Shown: piece by piece, positions 1 through 36,928 of the stretch
How positions within the stretch are numbered: position 1 is the stretch's first letter
Layout of the letters: the number at the start of each line of letters is the position of its first letter
IMG/VR virus record: IMGVR_UViG_3300026283_000001
Reading direction: 5' to 3' (one strand)
Source: a virus
Length of the DNA: 36,928 nt
Notes under the pieces: model-generated
Databases searched by the model: none
Told to the model about the DNA's origin: nothing
The model's input: the letters and a program-made list of their open reading frames with translations, nothing else
Translations under genes and position numbers: made by a program

Positions 1-980
1 CTCAGGTCGAGCGATCCGCCGATGCTTGTCGGCAGCGTGATGCCGGTGAGGTCGCACCCGCTCAGGTCGAGCGATCCGCCGATGCTTGTCGGCAGCGTGA
101 TGCCGGTGAGGTCGCACCCGCTCAGGTAGAGCGATCCGCCGATGCTTGTCGGAAGCGTGATGCCGGTGAGGTCGAACCCGCTCAGGTAGAGCGATCCGCC
201 GATGCTTGTCGGAAGCGTGATGCCGGTGAGGTCGCACCCGCTCAGGTCGAGCCATCCGCCGATGCTTGTCGGCAGCGTGATTCCGGTGAGGTCGCACCCT
301 CTCAGGTCGAGCCATCCGCCGATGCTTGTCGGAAGCGTGATGCCGGTCAGGTCGCACCCGCTCAGGTAGAGCGATCCGCCGATGCTTGTCGGAAGCGTGA
401 TGCCGGTGAGGTCGCACCCGCTCAGGTTGAGCGATCCGCCGATGCTTGTCGGCAGCGTGATGCCGGTGAGGTCGAACCCGCTCAGGTTGAGCGATCCGCC
501 GATGCTTGTCGGAAGCGTGATTCCGGTGAGGTCGCACCCGCTCAGGTAGAGCGATCCGCCGATGCTTGTCAGCAGCGTGATGCCGGTGAGGTCGCACCCG
601 CTCAGGTAGAGCGATCCGCCGATGCTTGTCGGCAGCGTGATGCCGGTGAGGTCGAACCCGCTCAGGTTGAGCGATCCGCCGATGCTTGTCGGAAGCGTGA
701 TGCCGGTGAGGTCGAACCCGCTCAGGTAGAGCGATCCGCCGATGCTTGTCGGAAGCGTGATGCCGGTGAGGTCGCACCCGCTCAGGTCGAGCCATCCGCC
801 GATGCTTGTCGGAAGCGTGATGCCGGTCAGGTCGCACCCGCTCAGGTAGAGCCATCCGCCGATGCTTGTCGGAAGCGTGATGCCGGTCAGGTCGCACCCT
901 CTCAGGTAGAGCGATCCGCCGATGCTTGTCGGAAGCGTGATGCCGGTGAGGTCGCACCCGCTCAGGTTGAGCGATCCGCC
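1..980. repeat. Tandem array of a 60-bp unit (16.3 copies here; the array continues at 36687..36928)
   Basis: Unit ctcaggtHgagcSatccgccgatgcttgtcRgMagcgtgatKccggtSaggtcgMacccK repeats head-to-tail in exact 60-nt phase from 1 to 980. Only 8 of 60 positions vary among copies. There are no spacers. Confidence 0.98.
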
Positions 981-1016
981 GTCATACGCCTCAATAATTT
1001 TTTGTGCTGTTTTCAT
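1..1016 (-). CDS. 5' part of a repeat-solenoid protein gene (20-aa LRR-like repeats); runs off the window start and continues at 36928..36498
   Basis: Minus-strand ATG at 1016-1014 is preceded by AGGAGG (RC of 1021-1026, 4-nt spacer). It reads MKTAQKIIEAYDGGSLNLSGCDLTGITLPTSIGGSLYLRGCDLTG... with no stop through all repeats. It is missing from the ORF track only because no stop lies inside the window on this side. Confidence 0.85.
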   Translation of the reverse strand, partial: MKTAQKIIEAYDGGSLNLSGCDLTGITLPTSIGGSLYLRGCDLTGITLPTSIGGWLYLSGCDLTGITLPTSIGGWLDLSGCDLTGITLPTSIGGSLYLSGFDLTGITLPTSIGGSLNLSGFDLTGITLPTSIGGSLYLSGCDLTGITLLTSIGGSLYLSGCDLTGITLPTSIGGSLNLSGFDLTGITLPTSIGGSLNLSGCDLTGITLPTSIGGSLYLSGCDLTGITLPTSIGGWLDLRGCDLTGITLPTSIGGWLDLSGCDLTGITLPTSIGGSLYLSGFDLTGITLPTSIGGSLYLSGCDLTGITLPTSIGGSLDLSGCDLTGITLPTSIGGSLDL

Positions 1017-1252: not shown

Positions 1253-1495
1253 ATGAAAAAACATCAAGTGATCGAGGCCTTCGGGACTCAAGCAGAAGCG
1301 GCCAGGGCTCTGGGGTGCTATCCGTCGACGATCCATGAGTGGGATGAGGTGCCGGATGGCCGTCAATACCAGATCGAGATTGCGACGCGAGGCCGGCTCA
1401 AGGCAGACCTGCCAGCAGACCGGCGGGCGCTGCTAAAAGTCAAAAAATCGGGGCGTTCCGTTAAGTCGGTCAAGTCGCGCGCCGGCCTTCGCTAG
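1253..1495 (+). CDS. Cro / YdaS-like HTH regulator (80 aa)
   Basis: Internal ATG of ORF 1217..1495. MKKHQVIEAFGTQAEAARALGCYPSTIHEWDEVPDGRQYQIEIATRGRLKAD matches the Cro/YdaS pattern (G.q..lAraLG...s.i..W...P......ie..T.G.Lk). It is the first gene after the promoter and is followed by a terminator. Confidence 0.8.
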   Translation: MKKHQVIEAFGTQAEAARALGCYPSTIHEWDEVPDGRQYQIEIATRGRLKADLPADRRALLKVKKSGRSVKSVKSRAGLR

Positions 1496-1517
1496 CCCTT
1501 CGGGGCTGGCTTTTTTT
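1491..1517 (+). terminator. Rho-independent terminator directly after the cro-like gene
   Basis: 8-bp stem 1491-1498 / 1503-1510 (gctagccc / gggctggc, one G-U pair), UUCG tetraloop 1499-1502, then T7 run 1511-1517. Confidence 0.85.
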
Positions 1518-1535
1518 CGTTTTTTGGTGTGGACA

Positions 1536-2175: not shown

Positions 2176-3548
2176 GTTACGAGCAATTTGTCTCTCGCAA
2201 GCTCGGAATTGTCGAGTCGGTCGGAATTGATGCGCCGATGCGCGACTACGGACTGTTCCCTTTGCAGAAGATGCTGACACCATGGGCGCTTCGTCGCGGG
2301 CGTGCTGCCATCTTTGCGGATACTGGACTCGGCAAAAGCCGGATGCAGCTTGCTTGGGCCGATACCGTTCATGCAGAAACCGGACTCGACGTGCTGATCC
2401 TGGCTCCTCTGGCAGTCGCACAACAGACGGTCGAAGAGGGTGCGCGGATAGGCGTGTCGGTGAATCACGCACGCGAAGCGGACCAGATCCGGCCGGGCTT
2501 GAATATCACGAACTATGACAGGGTCCACAAGTTCGACGCCTCGCGCTTCGGCGCGATTGTGCTCGACGAGAGCAGCATCATCAAACACCACGCGGCGAAG
2601 ACATTGCAGACGCTGCTCGAAATGTTCCGCAGCACGCCTTACCGGCTGGCTTGCACAGCAACGCCATCGCCAAACGACTGGACAGAGCTAGGCAATCATG
2701 CCGAATTTCTTGGCGTCTGCTCTCGCGCCGAAATGCTCGCGGAGTTTTTCGTTCATGACGGCGGCGATACGCAGACGTGGCGTCTAAAGGGTCACGCTCG
2801 AAAGTTGTTCTGGGCATGGGTCGCGTCGTGGGGCGCGATGGTGCGCAGTCCCGAGGATCTCGGGCTTGACGCCAGCGCATACAAGCTTCCTCCGCTTAAC
2901 GTGCATCAGCACACGGTAGAGATTGCGCACAACCCGGATCACGGCCTGTTCGCGCTAGAAGCTCAGACGCTATCAGAGCGTCGTGGAGCACGCAAAGAAA
3001 GCCTTGTTGATCGTGTTCGCGCATGCGCTGAAATAGTCAATGCGTCGTCCGATACGTGGCTTGTCTGGTGCGACCTGAACGCCGAGGGCGATGCTTTGGA
3101 GTCAGCAATACCGGGATCTGTCCAAGTTGCCGGATGCGATACCGAGGAATTCAAAGAGCGAACGCTGTTGGATTTCGCGCATGGAAAGCTGCGCGTCTTG
3201 ATCAGCAAGCCGAGCATTTGCGGATTCGGTTTGAACTTCCAGGCAGCAACAAACCAAGCATTCGTTGGCGTGACGGACAGTTTCGAGGCGTATTACCAGG
3301 CTGTCCGTAGGTCGTGGCGATTTGGCCAAAAGTCCGAGGTCAACGTGCATGTTTTCGCCAGCAACCAGGAAGGCGCGGTAGTCGCAAACCTTCGCAGAAA
3401 AGAGGCAATTGCAAATGCGATGGCTGACGCAATGGCTGCAGAGACGCTTGAAGCCGTGCTGTCGCAGGTAATCGGCGCGAAGAAAAACACAAACATCTAT
3501 CAACCATCGCGGCAGATCGTTTTGCCGTCATTTTTGGGGGTCGCATGA
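2172..3548 (+). CDS. SF2 (SNF2/DEAD-like) helicase
   Basis: ORF 2106..3548 from the internal ATG (MSYEQF). Motif I ADTGLGKS, motif II LDESS, motif III CTATP, motif VI QAVRRSWRFGQ. Confidence 0.85.
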   Translation: MSYEQFVSRKLGIVESVGIDAPMRDYGLFPLQKMLTPWALRRGRAAIFADTGLGKSRMQLAWADTVHAETGLDVLILAPLAVAQQTVEEGARIGVSVNHAREADQIRPGLNITNYDRVHKFDASRFGAIVLDESSIIKHHAAKTLQTLLEMFRSTPYRLACTATPSPNDWTELGNHAEFLGVCSRAEMLAEFFVHDGGDTQTWRLKGHARKLFWAWVASWGAMVRSPEDLGLDASAYKLPPLNVHQHTVEIAHNPDHGLFALEAQTLSERRGARKESLVDRVRACAEIVNASSDTWLVWCDLNAEGDALESAIPGSVQVAGCDTEEFKERTLLDFAHGKLRVLISKPSICGFGLNFQAATNQAFVGVTDSFEAYYQAVRRSWRFGQKSEVNVHVFASNQEGAVVANLRRKEAIANAMADAMAAETLEAVLSQVIGAKKNTNIYQPSRQIVLPSFLGVA

Positions 3549-4820: not shown

Positions 4821-5692
4821 GCGTTGAGGCGATCAATTGGGCATTCGCGCAGCCGGTCGAAAGGTCGGCCGCGAAGTTTGTTCTGGTCGCAATGGCAAGG
4901 CGATGCAACGACGCAAACCTGGTCAATGGAAAGTGGGCATGCTGGCCGTCAATTTCTGCAATCGTTGAAGACACCGGCATGAACAGAAAAACGGTGTTCG
5001 ACTCACTCGCAAGGCTGCAGGAATCCGGCTTCATTTCTGACGTTGGCATGCGCAAAGGCGGAACCGGGAGGGTTGCAGTCTATGCGCTAAACAGTACCAA
5101 AAACGGGACTATTAAACAGTCCCAAAAACGGGACGATTGCGATATTGAAATAGTACCGAAAACGGAACCATTGCCGGGGCTAATAGTACCGATTTCGGAC
5201 ACTAATAGTCCCGAAAACGGTACTGAAATAGTCCCGAAATCGGGACACGGAACAGATAAGGAACAGGAAGGAACAGGTAAACCTAAAAACATTACGCCAC
5301 GCAGCAAGCCGGAAGGGTTCGATTTCAACGGCCGGCTACTGGCCGAGGGTGTCGCAGAAACAGCCGCCCGGGATTGGGCAACCATCCGAAAAGTGAAGAA
5401 GCTCCCGGCAACCCAAACGGCATTTGAAGGGCTTCTGCGAGAAGCGTCGAAAGCGGGCGTCACGCTGCAAGCCGCAGTGACCGAATGCTGCGAGCGAGGG
5501 TGGGGCGGATTCAAGGCCGAATGGCTGGCGAACAGCAAGGCGAGGGCGGGTCCATCGGCGACACCGGCAAAGATCAACGGCAGCACACGGCAATCGAGAA
5601 TCGACAGCTACTGGAACCAGCGCTATGGCAACGAACAGCATCAAGGCAGTGAAGAGCGAGACATCACCGGCGAGTCGGAGCGCGTTGCCTGA
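4817..5692 (+). CDS. Replication initiator, lambda O-like (N-terminal winged-HTH)
   Basis: ORF 4766..5692; I prefer the GTG at 4817 (GTGA overlap with the upstream stop). AINWAFAQP...KFVLVAMARRCN...CWPSISAIVEDTGMNRKTVFDSLARLQESGFI is the HTH pattern of phage/plasmid initiators. Iterons lie inside the gene. Confidence 0.75.
   Translation: MSVEAINWAFAQPVERSAAKFVLVAMARRCNDANLVNGKWACWPSISAIVEDTGMNRKTVFDSLARLQESGFISDVGMRKGGTGRVAVYALNSTKNGTIKQSQKRDDCDIEIVPKTEPLPGLIVPISDTNSPENGTEIVPKSGHGTDKEQEGTGKPKNITPRSKPEGFDFNGRLLAEGVAETAARDWATIRKVKKLPATQTAFEGLLREASKAGVTLQAAVTECCERGWGGFKAEWLANSKARAGPSATPAKINGSTRQSRIDSYWNQRYGNEQHQGSEERDITGESERVA
5094..5246. repeat. Six palindromic iterons AGTMCCRAAAWCGGKAC (candidate origin of replication)
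   Basis: Copies at 5094-5109, 5119-5134, 5153-5168, 5186-5200, 5208-5223 and 5231-5246, each with inverted half-sites GT(A/C)CC...GG(G/T/A)AC. They are followed by 3x GGAACAG (5249-5276), and an A+T-rich patch lies at 5141-5152. Confidence 0.75.
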
Positions 5693-29758: not shown

Positions 29759-29822
29759 TTCGTTCCTAACCCTTTCTCTGCTCGTTGGTTTCAGTTGATT
29801 GGTGGGAGGTTTCAGTAACTAC
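29759..29822. repeat. ~64-bp intergenic element, copy B
   Basis: tttcgttcctaaccctttctctgctcgttggtttcagttgattggtgggaggtttcagtaacta. It also encodes the last 20 codons of the upstream gene 29766..30053. Confidence 0.9.
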
Positions 29823-30053
29823 CCTGCGATTCCACGAGTTGCGCACGAGCTGATGGTCGCTAAGTTCGTCGCTTTCCGTTGAGAGATCGACGCTCGGACC
29901 ACCTGTTGAGCACCGCTCACACTCAATCCAGCAAAGTTCGTGCGCGAATCCGTCTCCGTCGTATTCCGGGTCCGACGTATGCTCATAAAGCATTTCAGAC
30001 TCCCCGCAGAACGGGCAAGGTAGCAGGGTGCTGCTTGTAATGCGTTCGCTCAT
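29766..30053 (-). CDS. Lar-family restriction-alleviation-like protein (95 aa)
   Basis: LLPCPFCGESEMLYEH...CWIECERCSTGGPSV...LVRNSWNRR fits the Lar pattern (PCPFCG ... C..C...gp ... WNrR). Confidence 0.65.
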   Translation of the reverse strand: MSERITSSTLLPCPFCGESEMLYEHTSDPEYDGDGFAHELCWIECERCSTGGPSVDLSTESDELSDHQLVRNSWNRRVVTETSHQSTETNEQRKG

Positions 30054-30217
30054 TTCGTCGGCCTCACCTTCTCTCCAATCCGGCGATAAACTGCTTTCGT
30101 CATCTGCTCTTTGCTGTGCCCGAGCAGCCGTTGTGCGTCTTCCAGCTTCATTTCTGATGCCGCCTTCGGTCGAGCGTCACGGAACTGGAACTTGCGAATC
30201 TTGACGGCCAATTCCAT
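30050..30217 (-). pseudogene. Remnant of a phage tyrosine integrase (C-terminal ~55 codons only)
   Basis: The pattern F.F(H/R)D(L/A)R.KAAS......AQ.LLGH....MT..VY.R.....V.P matches the conserved HxLR...LLGH...Y end of phage integrases. No N-terminal or core-binding part exists anywhere in the window. Confidence 0.5.
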
Positions 30218-30469
30218 GTCTCCGCGGTGCTCTGCCTGCTCTGCGGCCTCCTTCCCGTCTCTCATGTTCCACCGAGCGATAGCCTGCGCCTTATCACGCC
30301 CAACACGCTCGATCATGCGCGACGGGCCAGGAATCTCCGCGCACCAGTGGCGCACGCTCCACGATGTCGGCTCGCCGTACTTCATCCCGGTCCATGTCCT
30401 GCCGTTTGGCATAATCTCCGTTGTGCCTGCGCCGCAAAACGGGCAGGGAAGCAGGCTTGTATTCATCAT
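30050..30469 (-). CDS. Chimeric ORF: Lar-like zinc-ribbon N-terminus fused to a tyrosine-recombinase C-terminal fragment (139 aa)
   Basis: N-terminus LLPCPFCGAGTTEI...RHWCAEIPGPS...AIARWNMRD is Lar-like. C-terminus FQFRDARPKAASEMKLEDAQRLLGHSKEQMTKAVYRRIGEKVRPTK is integrase box II-like. Confidence 0.65.
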   Translation of the reverse strand: MMNTSLLPCPFCGAGTTEIMPNGRTWTGMKYGEPTSWSVRHWCAEIPGPSRMIERVGRDKAQAIARWNMRDGKEAAEQAEHRGDMELAVKIRKFQFRDARPKAASEMKLEDAQRLLGHSKEQMTKAVYRRIGEKVRPTK

Positions 30470-36497: not shown

Positions 36498-36928
36498 TCA
36501 TTGCGCTATGTGCGCGCACAACCTCATCATCTCAGGTTTATTTTCTTTCCAAAACGCCAGCGCTCTTTGTTCCATTTCCGAGATTTCTGAGTCGCTGAAT
36601 TCAACCCATTCGACATGCGAGAAGGACTTGCAGCCAATCGTCATTCGCTCTTTGTCTATGGACACATCCCACGGCTTTTTATGCATGTAGAGCGATCCGC
36701 CGATGCTTGTCGGAAGCGTGATGCCGGTGAGGTCGCACCCGCTCAGGTTGAGCGATCCGCCGATGCTTGTCGGCAGCGTGATGCCGGTGAGGTCGCACCC
36801 GCTCAGGTCGAGCGATCCGCCGATGCTTGTCGGCAGCGTGATGCCGGTGAGGTCGCACCCGCTCAGGTCGAGCGATCCGCCGATGCTTGTCGGCAGCGTG
36901 ATGCCGGTGAGGTCGCACCCGCTCAGGT
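36498..36928 (-). CDS. 3' part of the repeat-solenoid protein gene (last repeats plus a unique 62-aa C-terminus)
   Basis: The frame of listed ORF 36498..36686 stays open upstream through the repeats (...TSIGGSLYMHKKPWDVSIDKER...). Once the 127-nt end overlap is applied it is in phase with 1..1016 (position 5 = 36926). Confidence 0.8.
   Translation of the reverse strand, partial: LSGCDLTGITLPTSIGGSLDLSGCDLTGITLPTSIGGSLDLSGCDLTGITLPTSIGGSLNLSGCDLTGITLPTSIGGSLYMHKKPWDVSIDKERMTIGCKSFSHVEWVEFSDSEISEMEQRALAFWKENKPEMMRLCAHIAQ
36687..36928. repeat. Continuation of the 60-bp tandem array (4 copies)
   Basis: Same unit as 1..980, in the same phase. 36802-36928 is identical to 1-127. Confidence 0.98.

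Follow-up and report, generated by a model that had tools for sequence, protein, structure and literature searches.

An early gene of an EBPR podovirus 1-type phage with a probable leucine-rich repeat array of at least 18 near-identical units and a conserved C-terminal domain

We analyzed a repeat gene that runs across both ends of the IMG/VR virus record IMGVR_UViG_3300026283_000001, a stretch of 36,928 nucleotides referred to here as the window. The gene starts on the minus strand at position 1016, and its product would consist of a 12-residue N-terminal helix, at least 18 coils of a leucine-rich repeat (LRR) solenoid and a C-terminal α/β domain of ~65 residues. It is well supported that this is a real, early-expressed protein gene of a phage of the EBPR podovirus 1 (EPV1) type. 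We hold the structural and evolutionary description of the gene given below to be highly probable. Its assignment to a functional class, that of accessory host-interaction or counter-defense proteins, is tentative and is suggested by gene position and array turnover. Structure, evolution and function taken together form an explanation that we consider moderately likely.

The start codon (ATG, 1016-1014, minus strand) lies 4 nt downstream of a Shine-Dalgarno sequence (AGGAGG, 1026-1021) and opens a frame that reads MKTAQKIIEAYD (981-1016), followed by 20-residue units as far as base 1. Tandem Repeats Finder reports a period of 60 with 16.4 copies and 95% matches at positions 1-981 and a further 4.0 copies at 36690-36928. 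The promoter-proximal part of the array (1-980, minus strand) comprises 16.3 units of 60 bp (20 residues) with the consensus GG[S/W]L[D/Y/N]L[S/R]G[C/F]DLTGITLPTSI, and the distal part (36690-36928, minus strand) holds four units, with a run of identical D-type sequence at 36750-36928, where the contig ends. The window ends share an exact overlap of 127 nt (bases 1-127 equal 36802-36928); owing to the periodicity of the array, the ends could also be overlapped by 67 or 7 nt. Joining the ends at 127 nt yields a circle of 36,801 bp and a single open reading frame of 439 residues, in which 18 full units and part of a 19th precede a unique C-terminus with its stop codon at 36498-36500. The original prediction had described a frame with a good ribosome binding site that continues through the units to the edge and, via the joined ends, into a product of about 439 residues. 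Both claims are borne out, with the qualification that this size is a minimum. Three of the six reading frames are free of stop codons across the array, and an open frame alone is therefore no proof of coding. Here, it is the start site and the homology of the C-terminus that determine the coding frame. AlphaFold2 places a helix at residues 2-9 of the 12-residue N-terminus, and the same N-terminal sequence is present in the orthologs P0121-P0127. The joined product has an isoelectric point (pI) of 4.06 and a net charge of about -23; it carries no signal peptide and is predicted to be cytoplasmic.

The first 127 bases of the window are exactly the stretch that is perfectly periodic at 60 nt, and the matching run at the other end measures 179 nt. 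The array contains 18 repeated 127-mers, all other 127-mers being unique, and an exact 144-bp repeat at 129-272 and 669-812. An overlap of 127 nt is the trace that a de Bruijn assembler with k = 127 leaves on a circular path, and the path starts here at the last k-mer contained entirely in the periodic run. We infer that the contig breaks at the edge of the run of identical units, in the way a de Bruijn assembler with k = 127 would break at a branching vertex, because an unbranched circle would start at this k-mer only about once in 37,000 cases. A branching vertex in turn implies that some reads would extend the identical D-type unit past 179 nt, a run length that falls within k to k+59, the outcome of a minimal pass through a period-60 loop. 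Since the contig breaks in an identical run and the array harbors the 144-bp exact repeat, both 18 units and 439 residues are minimum values, and the order of the units is insecure. The terminal overlap lies wholly within the tandem repeat; circularity of the contig is plausible and is supported by the agreeing frame and flanks, not proven by the overlap alone. The array itself is real, because the EPV1 record, assembled in 2011, also ends within it, as do several contigs of metagenomes from other samples, which run into the array and stop there. An ortholog was also located at the very start of a 60.5-kb contig (L025, OEOF01000001.1), which begins inside the array. This contig is much longer than the 36.8-kb phage and could derive from a relative of larger size or from a prophage together with flanking host DNA.

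We compared the window to EPV1, a phage known from a sewage reactor (JF412294.1; PMC3097231). The two are 97.8% identical over 89% of 24 kb, and by this measure the phage is already known and belongs to the EPV1 lineage. EPV1 contains the same gene, with the N-terminus, units and C-terminus of the window. Its record is linear and labeled 'partial', and the break falls within the array: one end carries ten units, the opposite end the gene start. The full gene is unannotated in GenBank, where only a 48-residue fragment behind a 1-bp indel has been called. This fragment (gp1; BFVD F8TUK3) is 100% identical to part of the C-terminal domain in the window. The array is not mentioned in the EPV1 paper (PMC3097231). 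The minimum number of units is 11 in EPV1 and 18 in the window, and the two arrays differ in unit order.

The C-terminal domain (36498-36695, minus strand; SLYMHKKPW...IGC...W..F..I..M..A..FW..K...) connects the gene to a large group of phage proteins. A profile of the domain retrieved 2,722 cluster representatives at E ≤1e-3 and 1,813 at E ≤1e-10 from 1.84 billion proteins, the resulting family size of ~2,700 being a count of clusters at 50% identity. All family-invariant columns (I-G-C, W, F, I, M, FW and K) are present in the window's domain. In all 150 hits listed, the domain is C-terminal, in proteins of 66-295 residues, and the 439-residue protein described here exceeds every one of these listed relatives. 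The part that precedes the domain was examined in 194 members: 132 have pentapeptide repeats, with 3 to ~22 copies, seven have the LRR 20-mer, all of them in the EPV1 clade, three have cysteine-rich CxxCxx repeats, and the remaining 52 have other repeats or nothing, including YdcK-type (PF18836) and GGTF/GGEW-type arrays and members with none. These sequence comparisons indicate that the C-terminal domain is the constant part of the protein, with interchangeable kinds of β-solenoid placed in front of it. The domain matches PHROG 31567 at E 3.1e-8, and PHROG 37032 was also matched; both are function-unassigned. Members from cultured phages include proteins of the Salmonella phages L, ST64T (orf232) and epsilon34 (gene 42) and of Caulobacter phage RapA, with ~30 pentapeptides, and further members are found in Rheinheimera phage Barba and in Acinetobacter, Edwardsiella, Vibrio and other phages. 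Judged by its sequence, the gene thus belongs to a very large, catalogued family of phage early proteins and is not an orphan. In this respect the original prediction, which knew of no described phage function for such a protein at this position, needs changing: the C-terminal domain ties the protein to the PHROG 31567/ST64T orf232 family.

Searches with Pfam, NCBIfam and PADLOC returned no model for the C-terminal domain, and the PDB contains no sequence relative of it. PADLOC likewise gave no match of the gene to a described anti-defense or defense family, and a scan of the GTDB representative genomes recovered no relative of the EPV1-clade gene. Matches of the C-terminal profile to WD40 proteins in the PDB were rejected, as they represent summed weak matches to a highly repetitive protein, none of which passes alone, and are absent with a broader profile. 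An AlphaFold2 model of four units and the C-terminal domain, computed with the family alignment, reached a predicted local distance difference test (pLDDT) value of 92.5 and a predicted template modeling score of 0.84. In this model, four short strands of the domain continue the solenoid and are followed by three helices. The domain folds at pLDDT >90 when the family alignment is supplied. Foldseek found no solved analog of the four-unit model, and in BFVD it returned only unnamed, 'pentapeptide' or 'LRR' phage proteins and EPV1 gp1.

Close counterparts among known phages are ST64T orf232, the 'pentapeptide repeat family protein' of phage L and epsilon34 gp42 (ACLAME 560; PHROG 31567 and 37032). 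They have the same C-terminal domain, although it is only ~30-45% identical to that of the window, and they are genes of the early left operon. As in the EPV1 lineage, the repeat number of the orf232 and L proteins varies between near-identical phages. They differ from the window's protein in having true 5-residue pentapeptide repeats, in 14-15 copies, and their genes lie downstream of N and ral rather than in the first position. Some other relatives (P0157, P0201, P0233; L008 3672-4439) carry long Cys-rich arrays of three- or six-residue repeats, (C-S-[GDR])n or CxxCxx, where pentapeptides would otherwise stand, and for these there is no Pfam match. Rheinheimera phage Barba17S (L029) has two 'pentapeptide' genes close together, at 828-1805 and 2515-3192; the search matched gp045, and 111 Barba records of 80.2-82.7 kb contain a match.

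We next consider how the units differ from one another. Eight of the 60 nucleotide positions vary, three of them synonymous (codons 11, 13 and 16) and five causing replacements, namely S/W at codon 3, N/Y/D at codon 5, S/R at codon 7, C/F at codon 9 and one P/L at codon 17. This comparison reproduces the variation statistics of the original prediction exactly and answers its proposal to examine variability codon by codon. The mean pairwise DNA identity of the units within the array is 95.4%, and every unit is in frame and keeps the hydrophobic core residues. Positions 3, 5 and 7 flank the two invariant leucines and correspond to the exposed positions of an LRR strand, in line with the earlier observation that replacements cluster on a strand face. 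The alternation, however, is family-wide and did not arise in this array: the corresponding positions of 96 units show the same S/W, D/Y (some N) and S/R states, in unrelated proteins that come from other phages, from Salmonella, Clostridia and Patescibacteria and, as a PcfJ-domain protein, from Ancylobacter. The S/W, D/Y/N and S/R residues appear to mark unit types inherited from a wider LRR family and not made within this array. We rejected a diversity-generating mechanism, as well as hypervariation local to the strand face, since distant homologs show the same alternation and the variable bases are without adenine bias. Positions 10, 12, 15, 18 and 19 are variable in homologs and invariant here, in agreement with a small number of founder units having been amplified recently. 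The replacement of Cys-9 by Phe in this array and by Tyr in EPV1 is lineage-specific and affects a conserved core position. Five replacement versus three synonymous sites is close to the random expectation and provides no evidence of positive selection.

Related 20-residue units also occur in other protein contexts. The closest repeat homologs (P0001-P0010), which are 62-76% identical over the aligned repeats, have another, conserved N-terminal domain (NWMIR...CGGGLHG...NKIK) with no Pfam hit, and other related 20-mers are joined to PcfJ or HNH_5 domains or to large Patescibacteria proteins. These varied contexts indicate that the array of 20-mers is a mobile module.

Three Pfam models score above threshold on the product, LRR_1 with 62.1 bits (cut-off 20.6), the pentapeptide model PF00805 with 59.7 bits and LRR_5 (PF13306) with 44.7 bits (cut-off 27.7), and sequence models alone are thus ambiguous with respect to the fold. 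For LRR_1, no single stretch passes alone despite the summed score. Each unit follows the pattern L4-x-L6-x-x-C9-x-L11-x-x-I14-x-L16-P17 with a period of 20. The units contain the LRR core LxxLxLxx(N/C/T)xL, with a glycine in the classical position 1 and the hydrophobic residue one place earlier. AlphaFold2 without an alignment produced a confident solenoid (pLDDT ~88 in the repeats). The best global Foldseek match of this model is YopM, with a template modeling (TM) score of 0.43 over 416 columns, and the LRR domains of SspH1 and IpaH3 superpose at a root mean square deviation (rmsd) of 4-5 Å. All pentapeptide proteins gave TM scores ≤0.2 and rmsd values of 13-18 Å with the predicted model, despite low E-values; the curvature and handedness of the models were judged through these Foldseek scores only.

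Profile comparisons point in the same direction. We built a unit profile from six-unit segments of this protein and its closest repeat homologs, and searched it against PDB sequences. LRR proteins rank first (LIC11098, E 2.7e-12; BspA-like 4fs7, E 1.5e-11), with pentapeptide proteins at 1e-7 to 1e-4. Using hhalign, the units align in register over 113 columns with FlrP-like 20-mers (GG[S/W]L[D/Y]L[S/R]GTxITxLPDNLTV; probability 99.3%, E 4e-20), and these in turn hit the structure of Vibrio FlrP, an LRR solenoid that has been solved, at E 3.6e-28. The alignment to the pentapeptide arrays of the protein's own C-terminal-domain relatives reaches a probability of 51% and covers 12 columns only. 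The pentapeptide consensus A(D/N)LXX is found in two of the four pentads of each unit; the fourth pentad has a central glycine, and two have Leu or Ile at position i-2. Taken together, the models and profiles make it quite probable that the units form an LRR solenoid, as the original prediction had suggested, and one of the 20-residue bacterial class.

We compared the units to repeat proteins of known structure or function. The LRRs of Vibrio FlrP (PDB 8Z5U), YopM, IpaH, SspH and SlrP share the 20-residue period and the LxLxx(N/C/T)xL core. FlrP is a secreted, basic component of the flagellar motor, unlike the window's protein, and the direct sequence match between the two is weak (E ~1e-3 to 1e-4). 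YopM, IpaH and SspH belong to the type III effectors and have different terminal domains; near-identical units and the C-terminal domain described here are absent from all of these LRR proteins. In BspA-type LRR proteins (PF13306; 4fs7), to which the units had been considered closest, a 'GC.L..I.LP.SV' pattern is common to the unit profile. Both PF13306 and 4fs7 are matched with the scores given above, but BspA-type proteins are found on the cell surface and have units of ~23-25 residues, so that a gap is needed in every unit alignment. With the pentapeptide proteins Qnr, MfpA and AlbG (PF00805), there is local similarity in LDLSG and CDLTG, a 20-residue unit would equal four pentads, and the proteins are likewise acidic and rod-like. 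The full-unit consensus is lacking, however, the models do not superpose, and the profile likeness is restricted to the 12 columns mentioned above. The pentapeptide fold proposed as an alternative in the original prediction is therefore disfavored, and pentapeptide repeat proteins are related to the gene as domain partners in the C-terminal-domain family.

Complete orthologs carry one, two or five units, and those with the same N- and C-termini and one or two units are proteins of 99 or 119 residues. We infer that the one- and two-unit forms are no collapsed loops, because their periodic sequence is shorter than the assembler k (k141 contigs). The DNA identity of units is ~95% within a genome and 87-93% between genomes, and that of the unique C-terminal DNA is 78-82%. 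This pattern indicates concerted evolution, strong conservation of the units, or both. The Salmonella phages L and ST64T are >99.9% identical and differ in only two places, one of them being the gain or loss of one 15-bp repeat in orf232 (PMC8022706). The claim that the gene is recombinogenic and variable in copy number is thus supported by the contigs that break in the array, by the higher unit identity within than between genomes and by the homologs of different copy number, for which the original prediction had proposed to search. Relatives have one to five units. Growth of the array in this lineage would have come about through unequal recombination between 60-bp units or through slippage during replication, and the same process would keep it homogeneous.

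The repeat gene is the first gene after a leftward promoter-like site (TTGACG-17-TATAGT, 1173-1145, minus strand), which matches 10 of 12 consensus positions and is one of two sites found where 0.4 were expected. Its position implies a 5' untranslated region (UTR) of ~120 nt. This region contains a hairpin (GCCGC-AACACAAC-GCGGC, 1118-1135), the stem of which was found on the plus strand and which could be a nut/boxB-like element. The repeat gene is divergent from a P22_Cro-family gene (1253-1495, plus strand), which is preceded by a promoter-like site TTGACA-17-TACATT (1217-1245) and followed by a terminator (1491-1520). Both parts of the earlier placement, as the first gene of a leftward early transcript and as the divergent partner of a cro-like gene, are thus confirmed at the level of promoter-like sites and gene families. 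No terminator was found after the repeat gene, which therefore heads a longer operon. Downstream of it lie three unknown genes, the recombination genes for RecT and an exonuclease, genes for SSB and a DUF3268 zinc-finger protein, and two genes of the Lar restriction-alleviation type. Members of the C-terminal-domain family are divergent from a Cro/YdaS-type gene in four lineages, including this one. The order in phage L is N - ral - orf232 - 17 - cIII - kil - erf - abc, and in other phages the family gene is part of a replication module or has a methylase gene as its neighbor (Acinetobacter phage Acba_13). In none of the contexts examined is it located in a structural module.

From the leftward early promoter, the protein would be made at once, together with the products of the RecT and exonuclease genes and of the two Lar-type genes. 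It would bind a macromolecule of the host or of a rival phage and act as an accessory factor in host takeover or counter-defense. The C-terminal domain would provide a constant functional or oligomerization core, and the solenoid an evolvable binding or decoy surface. Gene position and rapid turnover of the array are the two grounds on which this functional reading rests. Other features that bear on it are the cytoplasmic nature of the protein, the accessory, recombination and anti-restriction genes around its gene, the exchange of unrelated solenoid types ahead of one constant domain and, in this member, the acidity of the product. A wider speculation, which we regard as rather unlikely, is that the C-terminal domain may define a class of phage early effectors. 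In these, a constant domain of ~60 residues would be combined with interchangeable arrays (pentapeptide, LRR, YdcK-type or Cys-rich) tuned by slippage, which would serve as a length-adjustable decoy or binding rod against host defense or DNA processing; the EPV1 gene, with at least 18 near-identical LRR coils, would be the most extreme expansion.

Several points weigh against our interpretation. Both long arrays are short-read assemblies, and they differ in unit order. PF00805 scores above threshold, and most relatives with the same C-terminal domain carry true pentapeptide repeats. The strong acidity of the protein is not general in the family, which has a median pI of 5.5, and the C-terminal domain is without a PADLOC, NCBIfam or Pfam model. 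A literature search on phage pentapeptide and orf232-type proteins turned up only the difference in repeat number between L and ST64T, and no function. Finally, as the single-unit orthologs demonstrate, the basic function does not depend on a long solenoid, and the expansion may lack adaptive value. This last point can be developed into an alternative in which the length of the array has no function, being the tolerated runaway amplification of a self-folding repeat, with the activity residing in the C-terminal domain with or without one unit. The orthologs with one or two units, the existence of repeat-free family members, the recent expansion implied by 95% DNA identity and the presence in some units of Phe or Tyr instead of Cys-9, a change that homologs do not show, are in keeping with it. 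Long arrays recur independently, however, with ~30 pentapeptides in RapA, 14-15 in L and ST64T and up to ~22 in metagenomic members, the DNA of the units diverges less between genomes than that of the C-terminus, and frame and hydrophobic core are kept in every unit, such that we consider this alternative unlikely. It is less likely still that the long array is largely a product of assembly, with few real units and an 18-unit path stitched together from strain variants or graph loops. The end of the contig does coincide with the edge of the periodic run, its two ends overlap by 127 nt, 18 of the 127-mers occur repeatedly and one 144-bp stretch is repeated exactly, the unit order is not that of EPV1, and complete orthologs have only one to five units. 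Against this stand the separate 2011 assembly of the same phage with at least 11 units, the several unrelated metagenome contigs that enter the array and stop, and the uniqueness of all but 18 of its 127-mers; moreover, a graph loop makes an assembler under-report copies, not over-report them.

A different function would follow if each 20-residue unit were one coil of a pentapeptide (Rfr) four-sided β-helix, and the protein an acidic DNA mimic which, like Qnr or MfpA, blocks gyrase, RecBCD or a restriction enzyme. The PF00805 score, the two pentads LDLSG and CDLTG that match the A(D/N)LXX consensus, the true pentapeptide repeats of most relatives, the low pI and net charge of -23, and the RecT/exonuclease and Lar genes in the operon would all agree with such a protein. 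The consensus, however, fits only two of four pentads, one pentad having a central glycine, the AlphaFold2 models superpose on no pentapeptide structure, hhalign covers 12 columns as compared with whole units for the LRR 20-mers, LRR structures are five orders of magnitude ahead in the unit profile, and the family as a whole is only mildly acidic. We thus regard a DNA-mimicking β-helix as improbable. DNA mimicry as a family-wide trait was rejected on the basis of the median pI, though this particular member is very acidic. An even smaller probability is given to a regulator of the early switch, such as an N-like antitermination protein, an antirepressor or an immunity factor. Here the position of the gene directly after the leftward promoter, its divergence from cro in four lineages, the terminator that follows cro, the hairpin in the 5' UTR and the observation that no cI-like gene was seen next to cro are suggestive, but the protein has no DNA- or RNA-binding or arginine-rich motif, its C-terminal domain is slightly acidic, P22-like family members lie downstream of a separate N gene in the accessory ral-17 segment, and in other phages the gene is found within replication modules. 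Least credible of all is a role of the 60-bp repeats as DNA, in the form of iterons, an origin or a recombination site, with the open frame being incidental. Tandem repeats adjoin the early control region and three of six frames are open across them, but the frame with the start site leads into a domain that is conserved across thousands of proteins, other genes encode protein LRRs to which the units are homologous, orthologs have only one or two units, and the variation tracks protein positions.

Some further features of the window were recorded. The TACATT -10-like hexamer ends 7 nt before the cro ATG (1253), and no Shine-Dalgarno sequence is present, so that the cro message may be leaderless or nearly so. 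Directly after cro, the intrinsic terminator at 1491-1520 (plus strand) is a strong one, with an 8-bp stem followed by T7. The rightward operon may thus need antitermination or read-through, and no N-like gene is evident. At 5088-5220, there are at least five copies of a ~21-bp motif with the palindrome GTCCC-AAAAAC-GGGAC or variants of it, reported by Tandem Repeats Finder as 25- and 34-bp repeats; these look like iterons or regulator sites. The two Lar (PF14354) genes are adjacent, at 29766-30469 (minus strand), and one of them (30050-30469) corresponds to EPV1 gp13, which is called 'integrase' in GenBank and in the 2011 paper and was the basis for the lysogenic call. No integrase signal was seen in that protein.

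The phage was known and the repeat type and the C-terminal family were catalogued already, and what is new is their combination, together with the size and uniformity of the array. The EPV1 record is corrected in two respects: the genome closes through a repeat gene that was never annotated, and the supposed integrase is a Lar-type protein. The array is also a trap for short-read assembly and for the calling of circular genomes. An odd LRR gene is now linked to a family of ~2,700 clusters that has neither a Pfam model nor a solved structure and is present in L, ST64T and epsilon34, phages with easy genetics. The association of one constant domain with several unrelated kinds of β-solenoid, the copy numbers of which shift on very short time scales, is unusual. 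Such behavior is typical of proteins involved in host-virus conflict, and the family is thus a reasonable candidate for counter-defense or takeover functions.

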